A stretch of 64,000 nt of DNA, from the NCBI GenBank assembly GCA_041661795.1, contig JBAZTS010000002.1, positions 36,263 to 100,262 on the forward strand. Direction: 5' to 3'. Position numbers and translations under genes: made by a program. The stretch is from Minisyncoccota bacterium (GTDB lineage: Bacteria; Patescibacteriota; Minisyncoccia; UBA6257; JAGOQP01). Numbering within the stretch: the first letter of the stretch is position 1; each line of letters starts with the position of its first letter. The notes under the pieces are model-generated. The model did no database searches and was not told the DNA's origin. It was given only the letters and a program-made list of their open reading frames with translations. Shown here in pieces: positions 38,169 to 61,960 of this stretch.

Positions 38169-39272
38169 CTATTTTAGATTCTCTATTATAGCTATCTCAA
38201 AGGGCACCAAGGGGAAAGGATTGTATTTCATTTGGGAGTAGGCGGTGATGAGCGCTTTTATAAGTTTTATCTGCTCGTCCGTATCTATTTTAGCCGAATG
38301 TTTTTTTATTTCTTTTATTTGGCTTTCGGCCAATTCCTTTTCAAATATCTTTTCCAGTTCCGGATTAAGATGTAAAGAAAGAACCCTTCTTAAATATTCT
38401 GTCAGATCTTTGTTAAATTGAAAAAGATTGTATCCCTGACTGTTTATTTCGTATAAAAATTCCAGCGACTTTTGTAAGTCCTTTTTTATGACCAAATCGG
38501 CCATTTTTATTGTTTTTAGAAAATCAACTTTTCCCAAGATGCTTTCCACGTATTCAACGGTAATATTCTTGCCCTTCATGGAAACAATCTGGTCAAAAAG
38601 AGATTCGGCATCTCTTAAACTTCCTTCAGCTAAAAAGGCAATCATTTCCAAAGCTTCTTTTTCGTATTCTACTTTTTCTTCTTTGGCGATAAATGAAAGT
38701 TTTTTTATAATCTCCTGTAGTGTCAGCTTTCTAAAATGAAATCTCTGGGTTCGGGAAACAATAGTGGGAGGGAGCTTGTCGTATTCGGTGGTGGCTAATA
38801 TAAAAACGGCATGGGCTGGCGGTTCTTCTAAAGTTTTTAAAAGAGCGTTAAATGCCTGTGGAGTGAGCATGTGAACTTCATCTATGATAAAGATTTTGTA
38901 TTTAAGATAAGAGGGGAGTGTTTTTATGTTTTCTTTGAGATTTCTTATTTCATCTATTCCTCGGTTGGAAGCGGCGTCAATTTCAACGACATCCAAAGCT
39001 CTGCCTTCTTCAACTTGTAAACAGGCGTGACATTCTCCACAGGGCTCTCCTTGCTTGGCAAAGTTTTCGTCCTCTTGTCTTTTCTGGCAGTTAATTATTT
39101 TGGAAAAGATTCTGGCGATAGTTGTTTTGCCGGTTCCTCTTGAACCGTAGAAAAGATAGGCATGAGAAATTTTACCTTCCTTAACTGAATTTTGAAGTAT
39201 GGTAACCGTATTTTCCTGACCGTAAATATCAGCAAGTTTTTTTGGTCGGTATTTTCTATAAATAGCTAACAT
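38169..39272 (-). CDS. dnaX: DNA polymerase III subunit gamma/tau (short form)
   Basis: GSRGTGKTT Walker A, Zn module CGECHAC, DEVHML box. Confidence 0.9.
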   Translation of the reverse strand: MLAIYRKYRPKKLADIYGQENTVTILQNSVKEGKISHAYLFYGSRGTGKTTIARIFSKIINCQKRQEDENFAKQGEPCGECHACLQVEEGRALDVVEIDAASNRGIDEIRNLKENIKTLPSYLKYKIFIIDEVHMLTPQAFNALLKTLEEPPAHAVFILATTEYDKLPPTIVSRTQRFHFRKLTLQEIIKKLSFIAKEEKVEYEKEALEMIAFLAEGSLRDAESLFDQIVSMKGKNITVEYVESILGKVDFLKTIKMADLVIKKDLQKSLEFLYEINSQGYNLFQFNKDLTEYLRRVLSLHLNPELEKIFEKELAESQIKEIKKHSAKIDTDEQIKLIKALITAYSQMKYNPFPLVPFEIAIIENLK

Positions 39273-39278
39273 ATCAAT

Positions 39279-39309
<31 letters not shown>

Positions 39310-39334
39310 TAAAGAGCTATGAAATAAAAAAAGC

Positions 39335-39900
39335 CCGCCGGTGTCTTCCGAGGAAGTCCTGGCGGGGTGGAACAGGTGGTGCGACCTTAGCTCACTCGGT
39401 GCTGTCGAGTTCGCTCGCCCGATATACTCTCCGGGTGATACGAGAGCTCGAATCTGCCGAGACGTGACGCGTGGTCACTTTTTGCTAAGGTTTTTTGGGG
39501 TGCTGCTCCTCTTCCTGTTCGGTACTTTCTAAGAACGGTTCCCACACCGTTCTCGCCGGCGAGCTTAGCTCGCGCAGGGTAGAGGCGCCTCCTAAAGGAG
39601 GCAAAACATGAGTACAAATTCGGAATTGGATTTTTGTGAGTTTCCGGACTCACTATCTCGTTTGGTGCACCTCCCGAGAAGTCCTTTTCCTTCCACTTAT
39701 TATTGGGCCAGTTTGAGATCAGCGGTGGACACTCAAACTGTTTGCGTGCTTTCACCGAGCTTGCCGGATTTACTCGGATCTTTGGTGAGATGGCGCAACC
39801 CCACAGTTTTGACCTCCCTCAGCTGCGCGCGCAACTGAGTTGTCAGCTCACCTAGTGACAGAGGCCCCCTTTTTGACCGTTTTTTCTTCTTGGTCCGGAA
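39335..39900. ncRNA. GC-rich structured non-coding locus (one or two ncRNAs; minus-strand terminator at 39335-39378); identity unresolved, SRP RNA candidate by position upstream of dnaX
   Basis: GC content far above flanks, no protein-like ORF, multiple stems (gtttgag..ctcaaac, ccgag..ctcgg), ccccgccagg...ccggcgggc + T7 on minus strand. Confidence 0.35.
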
Positions 39901-40020
39901 GGGTTTCCGTGCTACATTTTTATGCCTGTATTATACTCCTTTTGTTTTATTTGTCAAGTACCCATAATAAAGTTCTAAAAACCTTGGAATTTAGTGTTTT
40001 TGGCTATATAATTAATTAGT

Positions 40021-40737
40021 ATGTTTGAAATGAAGTCGGTTGAGTTCTCTGGGCCCCTGGACAAGCTTTTGGAACTTATTGAGGGGAAAAAAATGGATAT
40101 AACCAGAATCAGTTTAGCCGAAGTGACGGCTGATTTTTTGACATATCTTAAAGACCTAACGCAGGCAAATCAAGAAAATAAAAATGACTCTCTTTCAAGA
40201 ATAATAGCTGATTTTTTAGTGGTGGCTTCTCAATTGATTTTGATAAAATCTAAAGCTATACTGCCCGAGATAGAACTTTCTGAAGAGGAAGAGGAGAGCA
40301 TTCAAGATTTGGAGAAACGCTTGGAGCTTTACAATCAAATCAAACCGATGTTGGCTGTCTTAAAAAAATCGTGGAAAGAAAACAGTCCCTCTTTTTCAAG
40401 AGAAATGTTTTCTTCAATACAACCGGTTTTCTATCCTCCCTTAAAAATTTCAATAAATGACTTAAAACTTTCACTGCAGTCGCTGGTTGATTCGCTGGGA
40501 TCATTTATTCTGGAAACGGAAAAGATAGAAAGACAAATATTTACGCTGGAGGAAAAAGTGGCAGAACTTTCCCAAAGAATTACAGATGGGATTTCAAAGT
40601 TTTCCCAGGTTATTTCAAAGAAATCAAGACAGGAGGCGATTGTTATGTTTTTAGCCCTGCTTCACTTGTTAAGAGATCAGGTTCTAAGAGTCAAACAATC
40701 GGAAATTTTTAAAGAAATAGAATTAGAAAGAGTATAA
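40021..40737 (+). CDS. scpA: Segregation and condensation protein A
   Basis: LDKLLELIE..KMDIT.ISLAEVT..FL.YL; FLVVASQLILIKSKAILP. Confidence 0.8.
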   Translation: MFEMKSVEFSGPLDKLLELIEGKKMDITRISLAEVTADFLTYLKDLTQANQENKNDSLSRIIADFLVVASQLILIKSKAILPEIELSEEEEESIQDLEKRLELYNQIKPMLAVLKKSWKENSPSFSREMFSSIQPVFYPPLKISINDLKLSLQSLVDSLGSFILETEKIERQIFTLEEKVAELSQRITDGISKFSQVISKKSRQEAIVMFLALLHLLRDQVLRVKQSEIFKEIELERV

Positions 40738-54842: not shown

Positions 54843-54871
54843 TTGACTTATTAGTAATAATATGATATACT
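54843..54871 (+). promoter_or_regulatory. Near-consensus sigma70 promoter (TTGACT-N17-TATACT) driving GC-rich gene
   Basis: Hexamers and spacing; ~90 nt upstream of 54963 ATG. Confidence 0.45.
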
Positions 54872-54962
54872 CAAAACAAGTTTCGAAACCGCTTCACTGC
54901 CGTGAACAACACTACAGAAAGAGCGGTCGGAGCACTGCTCTTTCACAGAAAGGGGAACTTCG

Positions 54963-55361
54963 ATGAGTGGGATCGCTTGGTTTTTCGAGGTGTTCGCTCT
55001 GCTGTTTTTCGTGGGGACTCTGGGCGTTGCTTTCATCGGACGCCGCATCCTCAAGGCGGAGCAGGAGTCGTCGGTTCTGATGTCTTTCCTCCAGATCTGC
55101 AGTGGAGCGCTCTTCATCTTCTACGTTTTCGGACTGGGTCAACTCATGGCTCTGTCTGGACTGGAAGGTGCAAGGGCGCCCCGGTGGCTGATTCCGGGCA
55201 CCTACATCACTCTCACCATCTTCAGCGCGTTGACTCGGCTGGCTCTTCCAAGGTGGGGCAGTGACAACAAAGCGATGCAACTCTGGAGTGTCGTCAGCGT
55301 CCTGACGTTCCTACTCGGCACGTTCTGCCTCGGGGCGTACTCGTCCAACTACTTCGAGTAG
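54963..55361 (+). CDS. GC-anomalous (foreign-looking) 4-TM membrane protein, unknown function
   Basis: 132 aa, GC3-rich codons in an AT-rich genome, AGGGGA RBS, own terminator. Confidence 0.6.
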   Translation: MSGIAWFFEVFALLFFVGTLGVAFIGRRILKAEQESSVLMSFLQICSGALFIFYVFGLGQLMALSGLEGARAPRWLIPGTYITLTIFSALTRLALPRWGSDNKAMQLWSVVSVLTFLLGTFCLGAYSSNYFE

Positions 55362-55385
55362 GTCTCCTTCTTCAGCTCTTCAACT

Positions 55386-55421
55386 GGCGGCGTCTCTCAC
55401 GAGGCGCCGCACTGCTTTTTA
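55386..55421. terminator. Bidirectional terminator (gcggcgtctc tcac gaggcgccgc + T-run)
   Basis: GC stem between GC-rich gene and uvrC 3' end. Confidence 0.6.
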
Positions 55422-55467: not shown

Positions 55468-56607
55468 TTAATCGGTATATGTCCGTGACCGACGTAGTCG
55501 GTGGTATCGTATAGCAAATCTGTGGGCTTCGTTTCTTAACGAAAGTAATGTATTTTTAACATCTTCGGGGATTTGGCTCAAGCTGATAGGGGATTTTGAA
55601 TAGGGACTGTAAATCAATCCTTTTGTTTGTGATCTTTTATATTTCTTGCCAACATCGTTAATTAACTTACCATTACAATTAGAACGATCGTTGTAATTGT
55701 AATGGTGTGGATTATTACCCACAGATTGCAATTTGCCCACGTTTAGTTTTGCTAGAGCTATCATCGGAATCTTAATTGTTTTGAGTTGTGAGATTTGTGA
55801 TTTTCCTCCGTCAATGATAATTAAATCCGGATATTTCCATTCTTTGTGGTTAAGGCGTCTTTCTATAATTTCTTTTATTGAAGCCGGGTCATTGGCTCCT
55901 TTTATCGTTTTTATTTTAAATTTTCTGTAAAGATTTTTATTAGGTTTATTTCCGATAAACGTTACCATTGAGCCAACTGACAAACTACCTTGGGTATTGG
56001 AAATGTCGTAGCACTCAATATGTGTTTTTTCTCCATTATATAAACGAAGAAAAGTTTTTAATCCATTAACCACCTGGATGTATTTTTTTACTTCGATATT
56101 ATGAGCGGAACATAACCCTAAGTGATAATACAAGCACGGCTTTTCCGGTTTATTTTTACATGTGCGATAGGGGAATATTCTTCTGATTATCAATAAGAGA
56201 TGCTTAATCTCTTTTGCGTCTACAAACGGGCCAACAAAATCGGCTTTAAATTTTTTTGTTTGGTGTGTTAAAAGCACTCTGGGGTACTTTTCGTCGGTAA
56301 AAGCTATATACAAAAAATCCTTGTCATCTTTAAGTTCAATGTTATATTTTGGCTGATACTGTCTAACTAATTTTCTTTCTAAAATCAAGGCGTCTTTTTC
56401 AGATGGGGTTTCTATAAAATCTAAGTCAGCTACTTGTTTGTAAAAATTAATAGAAGCATTCTCTTGTCTAGAAAAATGCGATTCTATTCTCTTTTTTATA
56501 TTAATAGCTTTTCCGATATACAAAATCTTCTCATTCTTATCTTTGAAAATATATACTCCCGGTTTCTTAGGAAGTGCTTTTATCTTATTCTTCAGGATTG
56601 TTTTCAC
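55468..56607 (-). CDS. uvrC: Excinuclease ABC subunit C, short form lacking C-terminal (HhH)2 region; GTG start; contains in-frame palindrome insertion
   Basis: GIY-YIG PGVYIFKDKNEKILYIGKA, UvrC Cys-region, RNEAHRFAIRYHR motif near C-terminus; 379 aa vs ~600 typical. Confidence 0.8.
   Translation of the reverse strand: MKTILKNKIKALPKKPGVYIFKDKNEKILYIGKAINIKKRIESHFSRQENASINFYKQVADLDFIETPSEKDALILERKLVRQYQPKYNIELKDDKDFLYIAFTDEKYPRVLLTHQTKKFKADFVGPFVDAKEIKHLLLIIRRIFPYRTCKNKPEKPCLYYHLGLCSAHNIEVKKYIQVVNGLKTFLRLYNGEKTHIECYDISNTQGSLSVGSMVTFIGNKPNKNLYRKFKIKTIKGANDPASIKEIIERRLNHKEWKYPDLIIIDGGKSQISQLKTIKIPMIALAKLNVGKLQSVGNNPHHYNYNDRSNCNGKLINDVGKKYKRSQTKGLIYSPYSKSPISLSQIPEDVKNTLLSLRNEAHRFAIRYHRLRRSRTYTD
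55670..55705. repeat. 36-bp palindrome copy 1 (CCATTACAATTAGAACGATCGTTGTAATTGTAATGG) inside uvrC coding sequence, in-frame
   Basis: One mismatch from perfect symmetry; translated as ...YNYNDRSNCNGKLIN... Confidence 0.6.
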
Positions 56608-56645
56608 TGTTTTTTTATTTTTATCCTTATCTTAATCTTAATCTA

Positions 56646-56681
56646 CCATTACATTTAGAACGATCGTTCTAAATGTAATGG
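56646..56681. repeat. 36-bp perfect palindrome copy 2 (CCATTACATTTAGAACGATCGTTCTAAATGTAATGG), 39 nt upstream of uvrC start and abutting PaaX-like gene stop
   Basis: Perfect symmetry with symmetric A/T change relative to copy 3. Confidence 0.6.
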
Positions 56682-56684
56682 TGG

Positions 56685-57245
56685 CTAGATTTTCTTTATA
56701 GTCCCCATTTTTCCTATTTCCAATATCTCCACGTATTCGTTTATTCTCATTTTTTCTAAATCTTCCACAAACTTTTTAGGAATTTTTATTTTTCCTATCC
56801 AGACACTTTTTTGCAACATTTCAAATCCAATATTCTTTACAGCTGATCTTAACCAAGCCCTCTTCCTTTTAAATTTTTCCGGAACATCAAAAGCTATCAA
56901 AATAACATTGTTTCCGGCTTCTTTCTTATAATCTAAAGCTGGAGATTGATTATTGGATACCCGGTTAATAAGTTTTTTGGCTTTTTTAGTAATCTTGATA
57001 ATCAACCCCTCTTTTTGTTCTATGAGTCCGTCTTTCTTAAGACGATAAATCATTACCCTATATCTGTTTCTTATTTTTTCTTTCTCTGTTTTGATAGTCT
57101 CATTTTTAGTGCCGATTCTATTTAAATTGTCTCTTAATATAGACGTTGAGCCCCAAGAGAATAAAAACGCTTCAAAAGCATTAGAGTATGTTTGTCTATC
57201 TACATTATTTAGAAAACTTATTGTTTCTCTATTTCTTGCCCTCAT
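56685..57245 (-). CDS. PaaX-like transcriptional regulator (wHTH + PaaX middle-domain-like fold)
   Basis: RLKKDGLIEQKEG wHTH; VILIAFDVPEKFKRKRAWLRSAVKNIGFEMLQKSVWIGKIKIP matches PaaX W..LV.S.PE..R..R..LR..L...GFG.LQ.SVWI. Confidence 0.55.
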   Translation of the reverse strand: MRARNRETISFLNNVDRQTYSNAFEAFLFSWGSTSILRDNLNRIGTKNETIKTEKEKIRNRYRVMIYRLKKDGLIEQKEGLIIKITKKAKKLINRVSNNQSPALDYKKEAGNNVILIAFDVPEKFKRKRAWLRSAVKNIGFEMLQKSVWIGKIKIPKKFVEDLEKMRINEYVEILEIGKMGTIKKI

Positions 57246-57270
57246 AACAATATTATATCATCATTTATTA

Positions 57271-57306
57271 CCATTACAATTAGAACGATCGTTCTAATTG
57301 TAATGG
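57271..57306. promoter_or_regulatory. 36-bp perfect palindrome copy 3 overlapping putative leaderless promoter (TTGTAA-N16-TATAAT) of PaaX-like gene
   Basis: CCATTACAATTAGAACGATCGTTCTAATTGTAATGG; TATAAT 6 nt before the ATG. Confidence 0.5.
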
Positions 57307-57417
57307 AGGGAGTATATATGATTAAGAATATTAAATAATTATCATAGAGTTATTATGATTATAGATTGATTTTATCGTTTTAATTAAAGAGTGCCTTATA
57401 AATTAGCACGGACCGCT

Positions 57418-57570
57418 TTATGGGCGGTCCGGGATGGGTGGAGCGGGTGCGGGCTTGACCACTTTGGCCACGAGGCCGATTAATATGGTCAGCATTGAAA
57501 CGGGTACTACGGTGGCGATGATGACGGACGATTCCACCACCACCAGAGACCACTTGACTAGGTAGTGCAT
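57418..57570 (-). CDS. GC-rich tiny membrane protein (50 aa, MHYLVKWSLVVVESSVIIATVVPVSMLTILIGLVAKVVKPAPAPPIPDRP)
   Basis: AAAGGAGG SD; overlaps upstream ORF stop; followed by hairpin cggaccgc...gcggtccg. Confidence 0.4.
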   Translation of the reverse strand: MHYLVKWSLVVVESSVIIATVVPVSMLTILIGLVAKVVKPAPAPPIPDRP

Positions 57571-57689
57571 TCAACCTCCTTTCTTCTGAGAATCTTGGTG
57601 ATCCACAGATAGAGGTTGTATCCTGTTTGAATAACGTGGGCCATCTTTTGGCCCAGTATTGTCGTCCGATGAAACGTTGTTGTAGACAT
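57558..57689 (-). CDS. GC-rich tiny protein (43 aa, MSTTTFHRTTILGQKMAHVIQTGYNLYLWITKILRRKEVECTT)
   Basis: AAAGGAGACGTG-ATG SD; same frame as C-terminal part of listed ORF 57558-57860. Confidence 0.35.
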   Translation of the reverse strand: MSTTTFHRTTILGQKMAHVIQTGYNLYLWITKILRRKEVECTT

Positions 57690-57703
57690 CACGTCTCCTT
57701 TGG

Positions 57704-57949
57704 TTAGGCGATGGCGCCGGGGTATTCTTCGGAGATCTTCTCGATCTCTTTTTCCTCTTTCTTCACTTGGTCTGTGAGCACAAGGAAGAAAAAGATGATG
57801 GCCATGATTCCCACAAGAGTGGCAAAGGCCCATGAAAAGCTCTTGGGGAGTTGGAACCATCGTGATAAGTGATATCCTCCAAAAGTGAGAATTACCACGG
57901 CCACGGTCGCTCCAACTTTACGGAGCAAGTTGAGTAGTCCCGGGAACAT
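57704..57949 (-). CDS. GC-rich small membrane protein (81 aa, 2 TM)
   Basis: AGGAGG SD 6 nt upstream; hydrophobic helices. Confidence 0.5.
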   Translation of the reverse strand: MFPGLLNLLRKVGATVAVVILTFGGYHLSRWFQLPKSFSWAFATLVGIMAIIFFFLVLTDQVKKEEKEIEKISEEYPGAIA

Positions 57950-58193
57950 TACTCTCCTCCTTTTTGGTGTACATCTTTCGAAGTTTCTCCTGTAGAGCGT
58001 TGAGCCCCGTGAAGACCAGGGCTCCGGTCAGAAACCCGATACAAGCCAACGATCCTCGGATCTCCAATCCTGGAGGCAGTGGAACTCGGTCTGCCCATAG
58101 GACCGTGAAGAAACAGGAAGCAGCAGTTGAAAGGCCAACGAAAGTGAACCAAACCACTCTTGCGATCAACTCCAGAACTTTTCCGATTTTCAT
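57918..58193 (-). CDS. GC-rich small membrane protein (91 aa, 2-3 TM)
   Basis: GGAGGA SD 8 nt upstream; hydrophobic helices. Confidence 0.5.
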   Translation of the reverse strand: MKIGKVLELIARVVWFTFVGLSTAASCFFTVLWADRVPLPPGLEIRGSLACIGFLTGALVFTGLNALQEKLRKMYTKKEESNVPGTTQLAP

Positions 58194-58280
58194 GCTCTGA
58201 TCCTCCTCTGTTTTTCACATTATAATAATCATTGAATTTTGTCCATGTTTGATTTAGAATAACCCTTTGGTTGGCATTTT

Positions 58281-61193
58281 ATGAAAAAAGAGAATCAATC
58301 AATAGAAATAATCGGGGCGCGTGTCCACAACTTAAAAAATGTGGATGTTTCTATACCTAAAAATAAATTGGTAGTTGTTTGCGGAGTTTCTGGTTCCGGA
58401 AAATCATCTTTAGCTTTTGATACTTTATACGAAGAGGGACAGAGAAGATATTTAGAAAGTTTGTCCTCTTATGTCAGACAGTTTTTAGGAGGATTTAAAA
58501 AACCAGATGTTGAAAAAATAATCGGCTTGTCTCCGACTATCGCCATCAACCAAAAAAGCGTTTCTTCCAATCCGCGTTCAACTGTGGGCACAATAACTGA
58601 AATTTACGATCATCTCCGTCTTCTCTTTGCTCGAGTTGGAATTCCTCATTGTCCAAATGACAACATTGTCATAACCGCTCAGACACCACAAGAAATCGCC
58701 AATAGAATTATTGACTTGGCTCATAACAACGAAATTGTTTTGCTGGCTCCAATAATCTCGGGGAAAAAGGGTCAGCACCAGGCGATTTTTGACGAGATTG
58801 AGAGGGGCGGATATTCACAGGTCAGGGTTGATGGGTATTTTTATCCCATTGCCGAAGCCAAAAATATTTCTCTGGATAAAAATAAAAAACACGATATCGA
58901 AGTTACCGTAGGTAAGTTTTTTACTGGAGTAAAAATAGATATCCAAAGAAATATATCCAAAATGGAAAGAGAGGCATTGAAAAACAAAAATAAAAAGATA
59001 GATAAGTTGATAAAAGAAGAAAAGTTAGAACTTTTAGAAAACATCAGAAAAGGACTGGCCATGGGGCAGGGAAATATTGTTGCTCATACCAAGGGGAAGG
59101 ATTTTTCCTTTTCCGAGAATTATTCCTGTTCTAAATGCGGATTTTCTTTACCCAAAATTGAACCCAGAACTTTTTCATTCAACAGTCCTTTTGGAGCTTG
59201 TAAAAATTGTCAGGGATTGGGAACTAAACTTGAAATAGATTTGGATTTGATAATCAACCCGGAAATCTCTTTGGAAGCGGGAGCTATAAAGCCCTGGTTT
59301 TCTTTAAGCCGTATGGGAAGAAGAGCTCTTGGCGCCAATTGGCAGAGATTTGTTACTGAGACCATTATTAGGGATTCTGGGCTGTCCCCAAGAACTCCTT
59401 TTGGAAAACTTCCCAAAGAAGTCCAGGATAAAATTTTATATGGTGATAAAGAAAATTATACTCATCTTAAAGACGGCGATTGGGAAGGAAAAACTTTATT
59501 TGAGGGAATTATTCCTCGCTTGGAGCGACTTTATTACGAAACTGAATCTGATTTTATCAGACAGGAACTTTCTAAATACATGCTTGAAAAAACCTGTCCC
59601 GTTTGTAATGGGTCGCGTTTAAGAGAAGAAGCATTGGCGGTAAGAGTGGGAGGAAAGAACATTTCTGAATTGACTTCAATGGCGGTTTTGGATTTTGTTA
59701 GTTTTTGCCAAAAACATATTTATGAAAAAATGTCGGAAAATCAAAAAACGGTTGCTGTTTCAATAATCAAAGAAATTTCCACTAAATCAAATTTTTTAAT
59801 TAACGTTGGTTTGGAATATATGAACTTGGGAAGGTCAGCGACTACTTTGTCAGTAGGAGAAAATCAAAGAATCCGCCTGGCTACCCAGTTGGGTTCTGGA
59901 TTGTCTGGAGTGATTTATGTTTTAGACGAACCGACTATTGGGCTTCATCCTCGCGACACTGACCGTCTCATAAAAACATTAAAAGAACTTAGAGATTTAA
60001 ATAATACCGTGATTGTGGTGGAACATGATGAGAGGGTTATAGAAAGCGCCGATTGGGTTATTGAAATTGGACCATTAGCCGGAGAAGAAGGTGGCAAGGT
60101 TGTTTTTGAAGGAACGCCATCAGATTTGAAAAAATCAAAAACGTTAACTGGATTATATTTTGCCGGCAAGAAAAAAGCGCAATCGGGACTTTCTAAAAAT
60201 AATTCTGAAAATAAAGAATTTATAAAACTGTATGGCGCTTCACAGTTTAATTTAAAAAACATAAATCTTTCCATTCCTTTAAAAAAATTTGTCTGTGTGG
60301 CAGGAGTTTCGGGCTCGGGTAAAAGCACGTTAATGTTAGATGTTTTTGCCAAGGCCCTTCAGAAAGAAGTTCTTAGGATGAGCGTGGCTGTAGGTGAATA
60401 TAAAAAACTTGAGGGGGAAAGAAATATAGACAAAGTGGTTATTATTGACCAAAGTCCTATCGGCAGAACCCCTCGTTCCAATCCGGCTACTTATACGGGA
60501 ATTTTTACTCCCATTAGACAATTTTTCACTCGCTTGGAAGAGTCGCAGATAAGGGGATATGGGCCATCATATTTTAGTTTCAACGTTAAGCCGGGAAGAT
60601 GTGAGGCCTGCAGAGGGGAAGGATTTAAAAAGGTGGAGATGTATTTTTTGCCGGATATGTACGTAGAGTGTGAAGTTTGTAAAGGCACCAGATTTTCTCC
60701 CGAGGTTTTGGATGTTAAATATAAAAACAAAAACATTGCTGATGTTCTTTCTATGAGCGTTAAGGAAGCGCTGGCGTTTTTTCACCAGTTTCCTTTTATT
60801 GGCGATAAGTTAAAAATTCTTGATGAAATCGGTCTTGGATATATGAAACTGGGACAGCCGGCGACAACTTTGTCGGGAGGAGAAGCTCAAAGGATAAAAC
60901 TTTCCGATGAACTTGCCAAAAGAGCTACAGGAAGGACTATTTATATTTTAGACGAACCGACTGTGGGACTTCACTTTGAAGACACAAAAAAACTTTTATA
61001 TATTTTGCGCTCGTTGGTTCTAAAAGGTAATACGGTTTTAGTTATAGAACACAATCCTGATGTTTTAAAAGAATCGGACTGGATTATTGAACTTGGTCCC
61101 GAAGGTGGAGACAAGGGAGGAAAAATAATTTTTGAGGGAACACTGGAAGAGATAAAAAAGAAAAAAACAATGACGGGGAAGTATTTAATATGA
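58281..61193 (+). CDS. uvrA: Excinuclease ABC subunit A
   Basis: Two ABC modules ([20 protein letters not shown]), Zn fingers CSKCGF...[12 protein letters not shown]...CEVCKG; 970 aa. Confidence 0.95.
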
Positions 61194-61411
61194 AGATAAT
61201 AATCATCGTAAAACCAAATAAAAAAGAAAATAAGGTTGTGAAAATAGGAGAGAACATTTTTGAAATTTATACGAATCAACCGGCTAAAGAAAATAAAGCC
61301 AATTTGGATATTATTCAACAAATGTCCAAGTATTTTAAAGTATCAAAATCAAAGGTTTCTATATCTTCCGGATTAAAGTCAAAGAAGAAAATTTTGGAAA
61401 TAAATATATAA
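61190..61411 (+). CDS. DUF167 (YggU/UPF0235) family protein
   Basis: VKPN.K.....I......I....P..E.KAN.....Q..K.F.VSKS.V.I.SGL.SK.K.L.I. Confidence 0.65.
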   Translation: MKIIIIVKPNKKENKVVKIGENIFEIYTNQPAKENKANLDIIQQMSKYFKVSKSKVSISSGLKSKKKILEINI

Positions 61412-61443
61412 AAAAAGGGGGCTCCCGGTGTTGCTGGGAGCCC
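61411..61443 (-). terminator. Minus-strand terminator (gggctcccagcaacaccgggagccc + T7)
   Basis: Perfect stem followed by TTTTTTT on minus strand, ending GC-rich island. Confidence 0.5.
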
Positions 61444-61960
61444 AAAGTGCGGTAAGGAGGTCAATGTACGATGCGGTGCCTGCCGTGCGTCGCTTCGCTC
61501 GTTCGGGTCTTGGTGGTTCAGATCAGGGCCAGTCGTGCCCGAAAACTTAACTTTCTGGCCCATTGCTTCTCGGCACGCATGGTTTCTCCTTGCATGGATT
61601 TTTGGTCCACGCAGCTCTGCCCTCAGCGCTTGACGGTGGCCTCGTCGTTGGTGCGGTGGTTGTTCTGACGCTGTTGCATGGGATTTCTCCTCGCGTGAAC
61701 GTCGTCGGTTGTTGGTGCTAGCTATGGCTCAAGTCAAGCTTTCTTTTCGGTGAGCTTGACGAGCAGTGCTAGCGCCTGTTCTGGGTTTCGTTTTTTATCG
61801 GTATAACCTTCACAAGGTTATACCAGGGTTTCCTTCCTGATTGGCGGTCAAGAAGGTTGTTTAATCATCCAGCATTGTCCTAACTAACGGAACGGCGGTT
61901 CGACGTCCACGTGCATCGCTTTCCTCCTTATGTAGTTTACTTATTTCAGGATAAAACAAA
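61444..61960. other. GC-rich non-coding island (candidate structured RNA or degraded foreign DNA) in convergent intergenic region
   Basis: GC content well above flanks, stops in most frames, hairpins (ggtataacc..ggttatacc), possible minus-strand promoter TTGACT near 61950 and terminator at 61411-61443. Confidence 0.3.

Follow-up and report, generated by a model that had tools for sequence, protein, structure and literature searches.

Does the short GC-rich stretch that separates a PaaX/Cas2-like gene from uvrA encode proteins, and did it arise in this genome or reach it from elsewhere? The window, by which we mean the whole 64,000-nucleotide stretch of DNA analysed here, derives from an uncultured Candidatus Paceibacterota population (locus tags WC705_ and WCW90_). 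We read four minus-strand open reading frames (ORFs) of 91, 81, 43 and 50 amino acids from the sequence between positions 58193 and 57418, each overlapping or adjoining the next. The first, orf91 (57918..58193), is annotated as hypothetical protein WC705_01895. It is preceded by the Shine-Dalgarno (SD) sequence AGAGGAGGA at 58209-58201, whose GGAGG core lies 8 nt before the ATG. The second, orf81 (57704..57949), starts inside the end of orf91 with an overlap of 32 nt and has the SD GGAGGAG at 57960-57954 (GGAGG core, 6 nt before the ATG). A spacer of 14 nt separates orf81 from orf43 (57558..57689), which has AAGGAGA at 57700-57694 (AGGAG core, 5 nt before the ATG). The last, orf50 (57418..57570), overlaps orf43 by 13 nt, and its SD, AAGGAGG at 57581-57575 (GGAGG core, 4 nt before the ATG), lies within the end of orf43. 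A preliminary description of this DNA had proposed four small overlapping or abutting minus-strand ORFs, each with an AGGAGG-type SD, and we found all of them where it had placed them. It had also stated that two of the ORFs were missing from a program-made ORF list. Only orf43 lacked a separate entry there, and its sequence was present as the tail of a 100-aa ORF.

We next consider whether these ORFs are genuine. Together, the four SD-led ATG ORFs of at least 40 codons covered 762 of 816 nt (93%). We searched 3000 dinucleotide-preserving shuffles of the segment for ORFs of this kind. There were none in 2784 shuffles, one in 216 and more than one in 0 of the 3000, compared to the four observed. 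A chance origin of the four-ORF pattern is excluded (P < 1/3000). Frame switches in a GC-frame plot tracked the ORF boundaries, plainly so in the 3' half of orf81 and in orf43 and orf50; in the middle of orf91 the plot was mixed. GC content by codon position followed the order GC3 > GC1 > GC2 in orf81 and orf50, GC3 was the highest position in orf43, and GC3 was elevated in orf91. The least certain of the four is orf43. It is absent from every public gene call, and its frame is backed by the GC-frame plot over 57726-57535. Public calls of orf50 come from Logan assemblies only.

Other frames of the segment were also considered. Alternative ORFs of 100, 89 and 64 aa on the minus strand and of 78 aa on the plus strand lacked the distribution of GC over codon positions that marks the SD-led frames. 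GC3 was below GC1 in the three minus-strand alternatives, and no alternative ORF of the four had a correctly spaced SD. It is unlikely that the small ORFs are frameshifted remnants of larger genes, because every fragment has its own SD and ATG.

The cassette differs from its surroundings in composition and in translation signals. GC content was 0.44-0.57 in the cassette ORFs, compared to 0.13-0.30 in the flanks, in agreement with the earlier claim of sharply GC-rich DNA; the average for the window was 36%. GC3 was 0.52-0.71 in the cassette ORFs and 0.27-0.33 in the adjacent host genes. Across all 67 long host ORFs, GC3 was 0.22-0.39 and typically ~0.3. AGGAG or GGAGG occurred at SD distance before 4 of 4 cassette starts, compared to 2 of the 67 long host ORFs, which is about chance level. 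A −10-like hexamer ended 5-11 nt before the start codon in 18 of the 67 host ORFs, which suggests that host mRNAs are often leaderless. The host appears to lack SD-based initiation. In a published survey, about half of the Parcubacteria had no 16S anti-SD motif that could be detected (PMC9297842). In conjunction with the apparent SD independence of the host, this makes efficient translation of the cassette in the host cell doubtful.

The edges of the GC-rich DNA are narrowly placed. It starts ~7-10 nt downstream of a −10 box, TATAAT (58224-58219), and its 3' end falls at a stable hairpin no more than 20 nt from the orf50 stop codon. With these edges, at the leader and at the orf50 stop, the foreign DNA is trimmed to the interval from the first SD through the last stop codon. 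We found no flanking repeats and no attachment site around the cassette. When the segment was examined as a possible integron cassette, its 3' end held a 7-bp hairpin only and no attC, and there was no integrase among the called neighbour genes within ~10 kb.

We also assessed the signals for expression. The −10 box belongs to a putative minus-strand cassette promoter (58219..58245) with a weak −35 element, TGGACA (58245-58240), and a 15-nt spacer. The DNA around this site is AT-rich and of host type, and the site stands back to back with the plus-strand uvrA promoter (58232-58260; TTGAAT-17-TAGAAT). The uvrA promoter was flagged by the promoter scan, and the cassette promoter was left unflagged because of its 15-nt spacer. 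Transcription would start from the host-type TATAAT. Because the GC-rich DNA begins ~7-10 nt past this box, the predicted leader of ~19 nt would carry the first SD, that of orf91, which was unpaired in the local fold. The overlapping and abutting cistrons would then allow translational coupling. A weak antisense promoter-like site (9 of 12 matches) was seen within orf50 at 57495-57522.

At the 3' edge of the GC-rich DNA, a hairpin on the minus strand, GGACCGC-N7-GCGGTCC, spans the orf50 stop and is accompanied by a second small hairpin (57391..57430). The local fold of this region was −18.8 kcal/mol (z = −3.5). It may serve as a weak terminator, although it has no proper U-tract and was not flagged by the terminator scan. 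A perfect palindrome of 37-38 nt (57270..57306) lies between the cassette and the PaaX/Cas2-like gene (57245-56685, minus strand). This gene encodes 186 aa, matches Cas2 models in PADLOC and is bracketed by 38-nt palindromes. Folded as a hairpin, the palindrome at 57270..57306 reached −21.4 kcal/mol (z = −6.5), and it overlaps the minus-strand promoter-like site of the PaaX/Cas2-like gene (57279-57252; TTGTAA-16-TATAAT). The palindrome is context and lies outside the foreign DNA; it could serve as an operator, form a barrier to transcription, or do both. Cassette transcription would end at the orf50-stop hairpin or read through the palindrome into the PaaX/Cas2-like gene and uvrC. The cassette promoter is plausibly the ancestral uvrC promoter, in which case the insertion would have occurred within the former uvrC leader.

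To place the cassette in context, we compared the locus with related loci. L004, whose UvrA is 72% identical, has a tight cluster of uvrB, uvrC and the divergent uvrA, in which ~80 nt separate the start codons of uvrC and uvrA. The uvrC-uvrA gap is 54 nt in L008, and uvrB directly adjoins uvrC in L007. We found no relatives of the small ORFs in these three loci, and nothing similar to them by tblastn, blastn or nhmmer against 160 related loci. The gaps of 54 to ~80 nt in the closest relatives indicate that the cassette is a lineage-specific insertion in the short divergent promoter region between uvrC and uvrA (58281-61193, plus strand). The preliminary description had called this acquired DNA. 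That view is well founded, because the segment has foreign composition and foreign translation signals, and the closest relatives lack it at this site.

The cassette is not the only gain at the uvr cluster. Compared to its relatives, the window has also gained the orf132 gene, the PaaX/Cas2-like gene, a GC-rich unit at 61411-61960 and a short-chain dehydrogenase gene. The orf132 gene (54963-55361) encodes a membrane protein of 132 aa and has its own promoter-like site and terminator. Its GC3 was 0.74, and the likeness in composition to the cassette that had been proposed earlier was borne out. In L084, whose UvrB is 75% identical, a different GC-rich gene lies directly upstream of uvrC; its product, a secreted protein of 245 aa, matches Gcw_chp weakly. 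The spot at the 5' end of uvrC thus seems prone to insertions. A conserved link between the PaaX-like gene and small membrane ORFs was not seen in other CPR loci.

We then examined the predicted products. AlphaFold2 models placed helices at residues 4-36 and 43-81 of orf91 (pLDDT 71) and at 3-32 and 36-75 of orf81 (pLDDT 76), and hydropathy gave two hydrophobic segments in each protein. Both are predicted to form two-helix membrane hairpins, with a basic C-terminal tail in orf91 and a charged one in orf81. The charge distribution suggests an N-in/C-in topology for both. The product of orf50 has a hydrophobic stretch of ~40 residues and a proline-rich tail (GRAVY 1.08), and is predicted to be a helical membrane hairpin, the third alongside those of orf91 and orf81. 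The preliminary description had counted three of the four as transmembrane proteins, and our transmembrane check agreed, with two helices each in orf91 and orf81 and one hydrophobic stretch in orf50. The product of orf43 is basic (6 K+R, 2 D+E) and has no membrane segment by hydropathy; it is probably a small soluble peptide. The four proteins are not paralogous to one another or to orf132.

Database searches returned no relatives. A word-indexed search of 5.8 billion proteins with orf81, orf91 and orf132 gave self matches only. When orf91 was run exhaustively against 1.84 billion representatives with HMMER, the hits were the protein itself and four long multi-stretch proteins that we judged spurious. 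Exact-sequence clusters were singletons. Lack of conservation had been named at the outset as a finding that would count against the proposal, and this is what we observed, since orf81 and orf91 have no relative among the 5.8 billion proteins. The small proteins had no significant match in Pfam, PHROGs, PADLOC or NCBIfam; DUF3021 came closest but did not reach its cutoff. At E ≤ 1, the PADLOC defence models matched neither the four ORFs nor orf132. A sequence search of the PDB gave no matches, and a Foldseek search of the PDB with the orf81 model gave none at E ≤ 0.001. DNA and translated searches of phages and plasmids, and of IMG/VR viral contigs, also gave no matches. Overall, no donor or homologue was found in the protein, viral, phage, plasmid, genome and metagenome searches. 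Because these searches found no homologue of orf81, orf91 or orf132, purifying selection is not demonstrable and the donor is not nameable.

Overall, our data favor the view that 57400-58215 is an acquired, genuinely protein-coding four-cistron cassette in a Paceibacterota (CPR) host, to which we assign a probability of roughly 55%. It would be a horizontally acquired polycistronic cassette set just behind a host −10 box, TATAAT. The main rival is that the DNA was recently acquired from an SD-using donor of ~50-57% GC, for example after DNA uptake, and is unused by the host. The ORFs would then be intact only through recency, and would be poorly translated and without function in an SD-less, largely leaderless host. 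We take this possibility seriously and consider it unlikely. Several observations fit it: the host makes essentially no use of SD sites and the anti-SD is often missing in Parcubacteria, the singleton clusters offer no variants and hence no evidence of selection, and the composition has barely drifted toward that of the host. The structured, GC-rich mRNA fits it too, as the cassette transcript had fold z-scores of −3.8 (20 shuffles) and −3.0 (40 shuffles), compared to −0.9 and +1.3 for host gene segments. However, a random fragment landing in a streamlined genome would not be expected to run almost exactly from first SD through last stop directly after a −10 box. The four ORFs are intact, as are their four SD sites, and the sequence is fixed and identical in assemblies of several runs.

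A native origin would do away with the donor. The cassette would then be a fast-evolving Paceibacterota surface or membrane gene set whose composition is kept by something else, such as mRNA structure or stability. L084 offers a precedent for such a set, namely a 120-aa four-helix membrane ORF of host composition that lies between uvrC and uvrB at the very position of the GC-rich orf132 in the window, and the GC-rich stretch of every island matches the region inferred to be transcribed. Yet this ORF has no sequence similarity to ours, the site is empty in L004 and L008, GC3 is 0.52-0.74 in the islands compared to the host range across all 67 genes, and the islands carry canonical SD sites that are found at so few host starts. 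We regard a native origin as improbable. The fold z-scores would also be expected of a structured non-coding or dual-function RNA gene in which the ORFs are incidental. RNase P is likewise a GC island in the host genome, and two neighbouring ORF-poor GC islands look RNA-like (fold z-scores of −6.0 and −3.9). For those two islands, which hold no convincing ORFs, an RNA is more plausible than for the cassette. Tiling of 93% of the segment by SD-led ATG ORFs, a codon-position GC pattern that follows their frames and products that form coherent membrane helices by hydropathy and AlphaFold2 argue against an RNA here. The Rfam 15 covariance models gave no cassette match at the gathering score and chance-level miRNA hits only at E ≤ 5. 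We give the RNA reading a slim chance. Finally, the sharp change in composition at both edges could reflect an assembly or binning chimera in which higher-GC DNA was joined to a CPR contig. Logan contigs from two unrelated SRA runs spanned both junctions at 100% identity (L001, 57277-63115; L003, 57277-58427); both contigs end inside the 38-nt palindrome. Records of the cassette proteins also exist in two NCBI MAGs and in JGI. Over 16.3 kb, the NCBI contig and the window disagree at only 3 positions, all outside the island. Chimeric assembly had been named as a finding that would overturn the original proposal, and the 100% identity of independent assemblies excludes it; we find a chimera of either kind barely credible.

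The cassette is one of three GC-rich units within 7 kb of the uvr genes. The two others, at 54880-55415 and 61411-61960, each have their own promoter-like site and terminator. We found no sequence or boundary motif common to the GC islands, and a survey of about 12 kb outside the window added no island. One could suppose that the SD-carrying, GC-rich units at 54880-55415, 57400-58215 and 61411-61960, and perhaps 39330-39925, form a small class that sits behind host-type promoter-like sites and whose extent equals the inferred transcribed region. We consider such a class improbable. If it did exist, it could represent a separate expression class in an SD-free, often leaderless host. One possibility would be membrane or secreted effectors captured from a partner organism or its phages, and translated only under special conditions or through a retained anti-SD. 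Alternatively, it could reflect an unrecognised CPR route that captures promoterless, gene-sized DNA at promoters.

What would the acquired cassette mean for its host? Provided it is expressed, it would offer a clean case of a streamlined, episymbiotic-type (CPR) bacterium that captured genes very recently, with donor translation signals still intact in a host that seemingly initiates without SD sites. It raises the question of whether foreign SD-led genes are usable by the SD-less or anti-SD-less ribosomes of Parcubacteria, which bears on the benefit that such organisms could draw from horizontal transfer. The orphan proteins alone add little beyond the label of small membrane proteins. As to their role, the likeliest candidate would be a membrane-acting module derived from a mobile element, for instance a holin/antiholin-like pore-former with its inhibitor or a toxin with its immunity protein. 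We offer this specific role very tentatively and think it rather improbable. The preliminary description had pointed to holin, toxin-immunity, bacteriocin-like or phage-exclusion modules. These assignments were not sustained, as there were no family matches, no phage, lysis or transporter neighbours within ~10 kb and no viral or plasmid matches. The labels are architectural analogies only.

Of the known systems, class II holins and two-component holin pairs resemble orf91 and orf81 as two-helix hairpins of 80-90 aa with charged C-terminal tails and overlapping frames. The two-helix, charged-tail architecture is generic for small membrane proteins. Unlike holin genes, the cassette has no nearby endolysin, spanin or phage gene, no dual-start motif and no viral relatives, and its proteins have no holin family match at E ≤ 1 in Pfam, PHROGs or NCBIfam. 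Its neighbours are uvrA, the PaaX/Cas2-like gene, uvrC and uvrB, rather than a lysis cassette, and the called genes within ~10 kb include no endolysin, transporter, integrase or phage gene. Type I toxin-antitoxin systems (Hok/Sok-like) recall orf50, which is likewise shorter than 60 aa, mostly hydrophobic and carried on a GC-rich structured transcript. The cassette differs from them in being polycistronic, whereas they have a single toxin gene, and it has no family match; its only antisense promoter-like site is the weak one within orf50. Leaderless or class II bacteriocins with their immunity proteins are similar in that a 43-aa cationic peptide lies beside small multi-helix membrane proteins. 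In contrast to bacteriocin loci, the cassette has no bacteriocin or immunity family match at E ≤ 1 and no nearby ABC transporter or processing gene.

The closest description is that of ORFan genomic islets. Like them, the cassette has atypical GC3 and donor-type signals, is orphan and absent in relatives, and is inserted in an intergenic promoter region. It differs in being unusually small and tightly trimmed (~800 nt), in lacking integrase, tRNA or repeat boundaries, and in residing in an apparently SD-independent host. The cassette is an orphan islet of a familiar kind, and its twist is that SD-led, GC-rich cistrons sit in an SD-free, largely leaderless CPR genome.

Genes of this host rarely carry a Shine-Dalgarno (SD) sequence: among the long ORFs of the whole window its use was essentially nil (2/67 genes), and the ribosomal protein genes in the window also lacked one. 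Because a −10 hexamer ended 5-11 nt upstream of the start codon in 18 of the 67 genes, the sequence suggests that leaderless mRNAs are widespread in this bacterium.

We observed that the gap between uvrB and uvrC holds an inserted orphan gene unit on the plus strand (54880-55415; GC 0.57, GC3 0.74). The unit has its own promoter-like site (54843-54871, plus strand) and its own terminator (55387-55410, plus strand), with a fold z-score of −3.3. Its gene, orf132, encodes a predicted multi-helix membrane protein of 132 aa, for which no homologues were found among 5.8 billion proteins searched. A related Paceibacterota contig (L084), whose UvrB is 75% identical, has an AT-rich ORF between uvrC and uvrB that encodes a four-helix membrane protein of 120 aa (L084 2006-2368). 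This ORF matches the GC-rich orf132 in position and orientation, but the two do not show any sequence similarity. The same contig carries its own GC-rich (0.46) gene adjoining uvrC on the upstream side (L084 98-835); it comes with a promoter and a hairpin, and its product is a secreted protein of 245 aa with a weak match to Gcw_chp.

Another GC-rich unit lies on the minus strand, 3′ of a dehydrogenase gene (61411-61960; GC 0.48-0.56). We observed a promoter-like site on this strand at 61976-61948, and the terminator hairpin, at about 61411-61445, is strong. The fold signal of the unit was very strong, at z = −6.0. Within the unit lie three mini-ORFs, each preceded by an SD, that code for 10, 18 and 20 aa; the unit may represent either a structured RNA or an RNA that encodes small peptides.

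Between dnaX and scpA is a gene-free GC-rich island (39272-40021; GC 0.45-0.48). On its minus strand, a sigma-70 promoter (TTGACA-16-TATAAT, 12/12 match; 39957-39930) precedes an inferred transcript at about 39925-39335, and a GC hairpin with a T-run was found at about 39335-39370. The fold z-score was −3.9, and an Rfam search returned no match, even at E ≤ 5. Directly 5′ of an ATG at 39608, the hairpin GCCTCC-TAAA-GGAGGC sequesters an SD. We regard the island as a candidate locus for an unknown RNA about 590 nt long. A short tandem repeat of ACTTTAT (about 5 copies, minus strand; 39279-39312) directly precedes the dnaX start codon and shares positions with promoter-like hexamers. About 4 kb outside the window start, a gene-free gap on contig L164 (4534-5132) has a 230-nt GC peak (0.46) and may be another small RNA gene.

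The PaaX/Cas2-like gene (56685-57245, minus strand) encodes a protein of 186 aa whose N-terminal region is winged-helix-like and which also has a Cas2-like/PaaX_M domain (9.6e-12 in Pfam and 8e-07 with Cas2 models). Neither a CRISPR array nor other cas genes were found nearby. Relatives of the protein at other CPR loci have an N-terminal membrane segment. The gene is flanked on both sides by copies of a perfect 38-nt palindrome, ACCATTACAATTAGAACGATCGTTCTAATTGTAATGGT, which occurs three times in the window (55669-55706, 56645-56682 and 57270-57306) and nowhere else in it. One flanking copy overlaps the promoter-like site of the gene and the other lies 38 nt 5′ of uvrC. The third is within the uvrC ORF, in frame, where about 30 residues are missing from relatives. 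These palindromes look like either Rickettsia palindromic elements or operators of the adjoining winged-helix protein.
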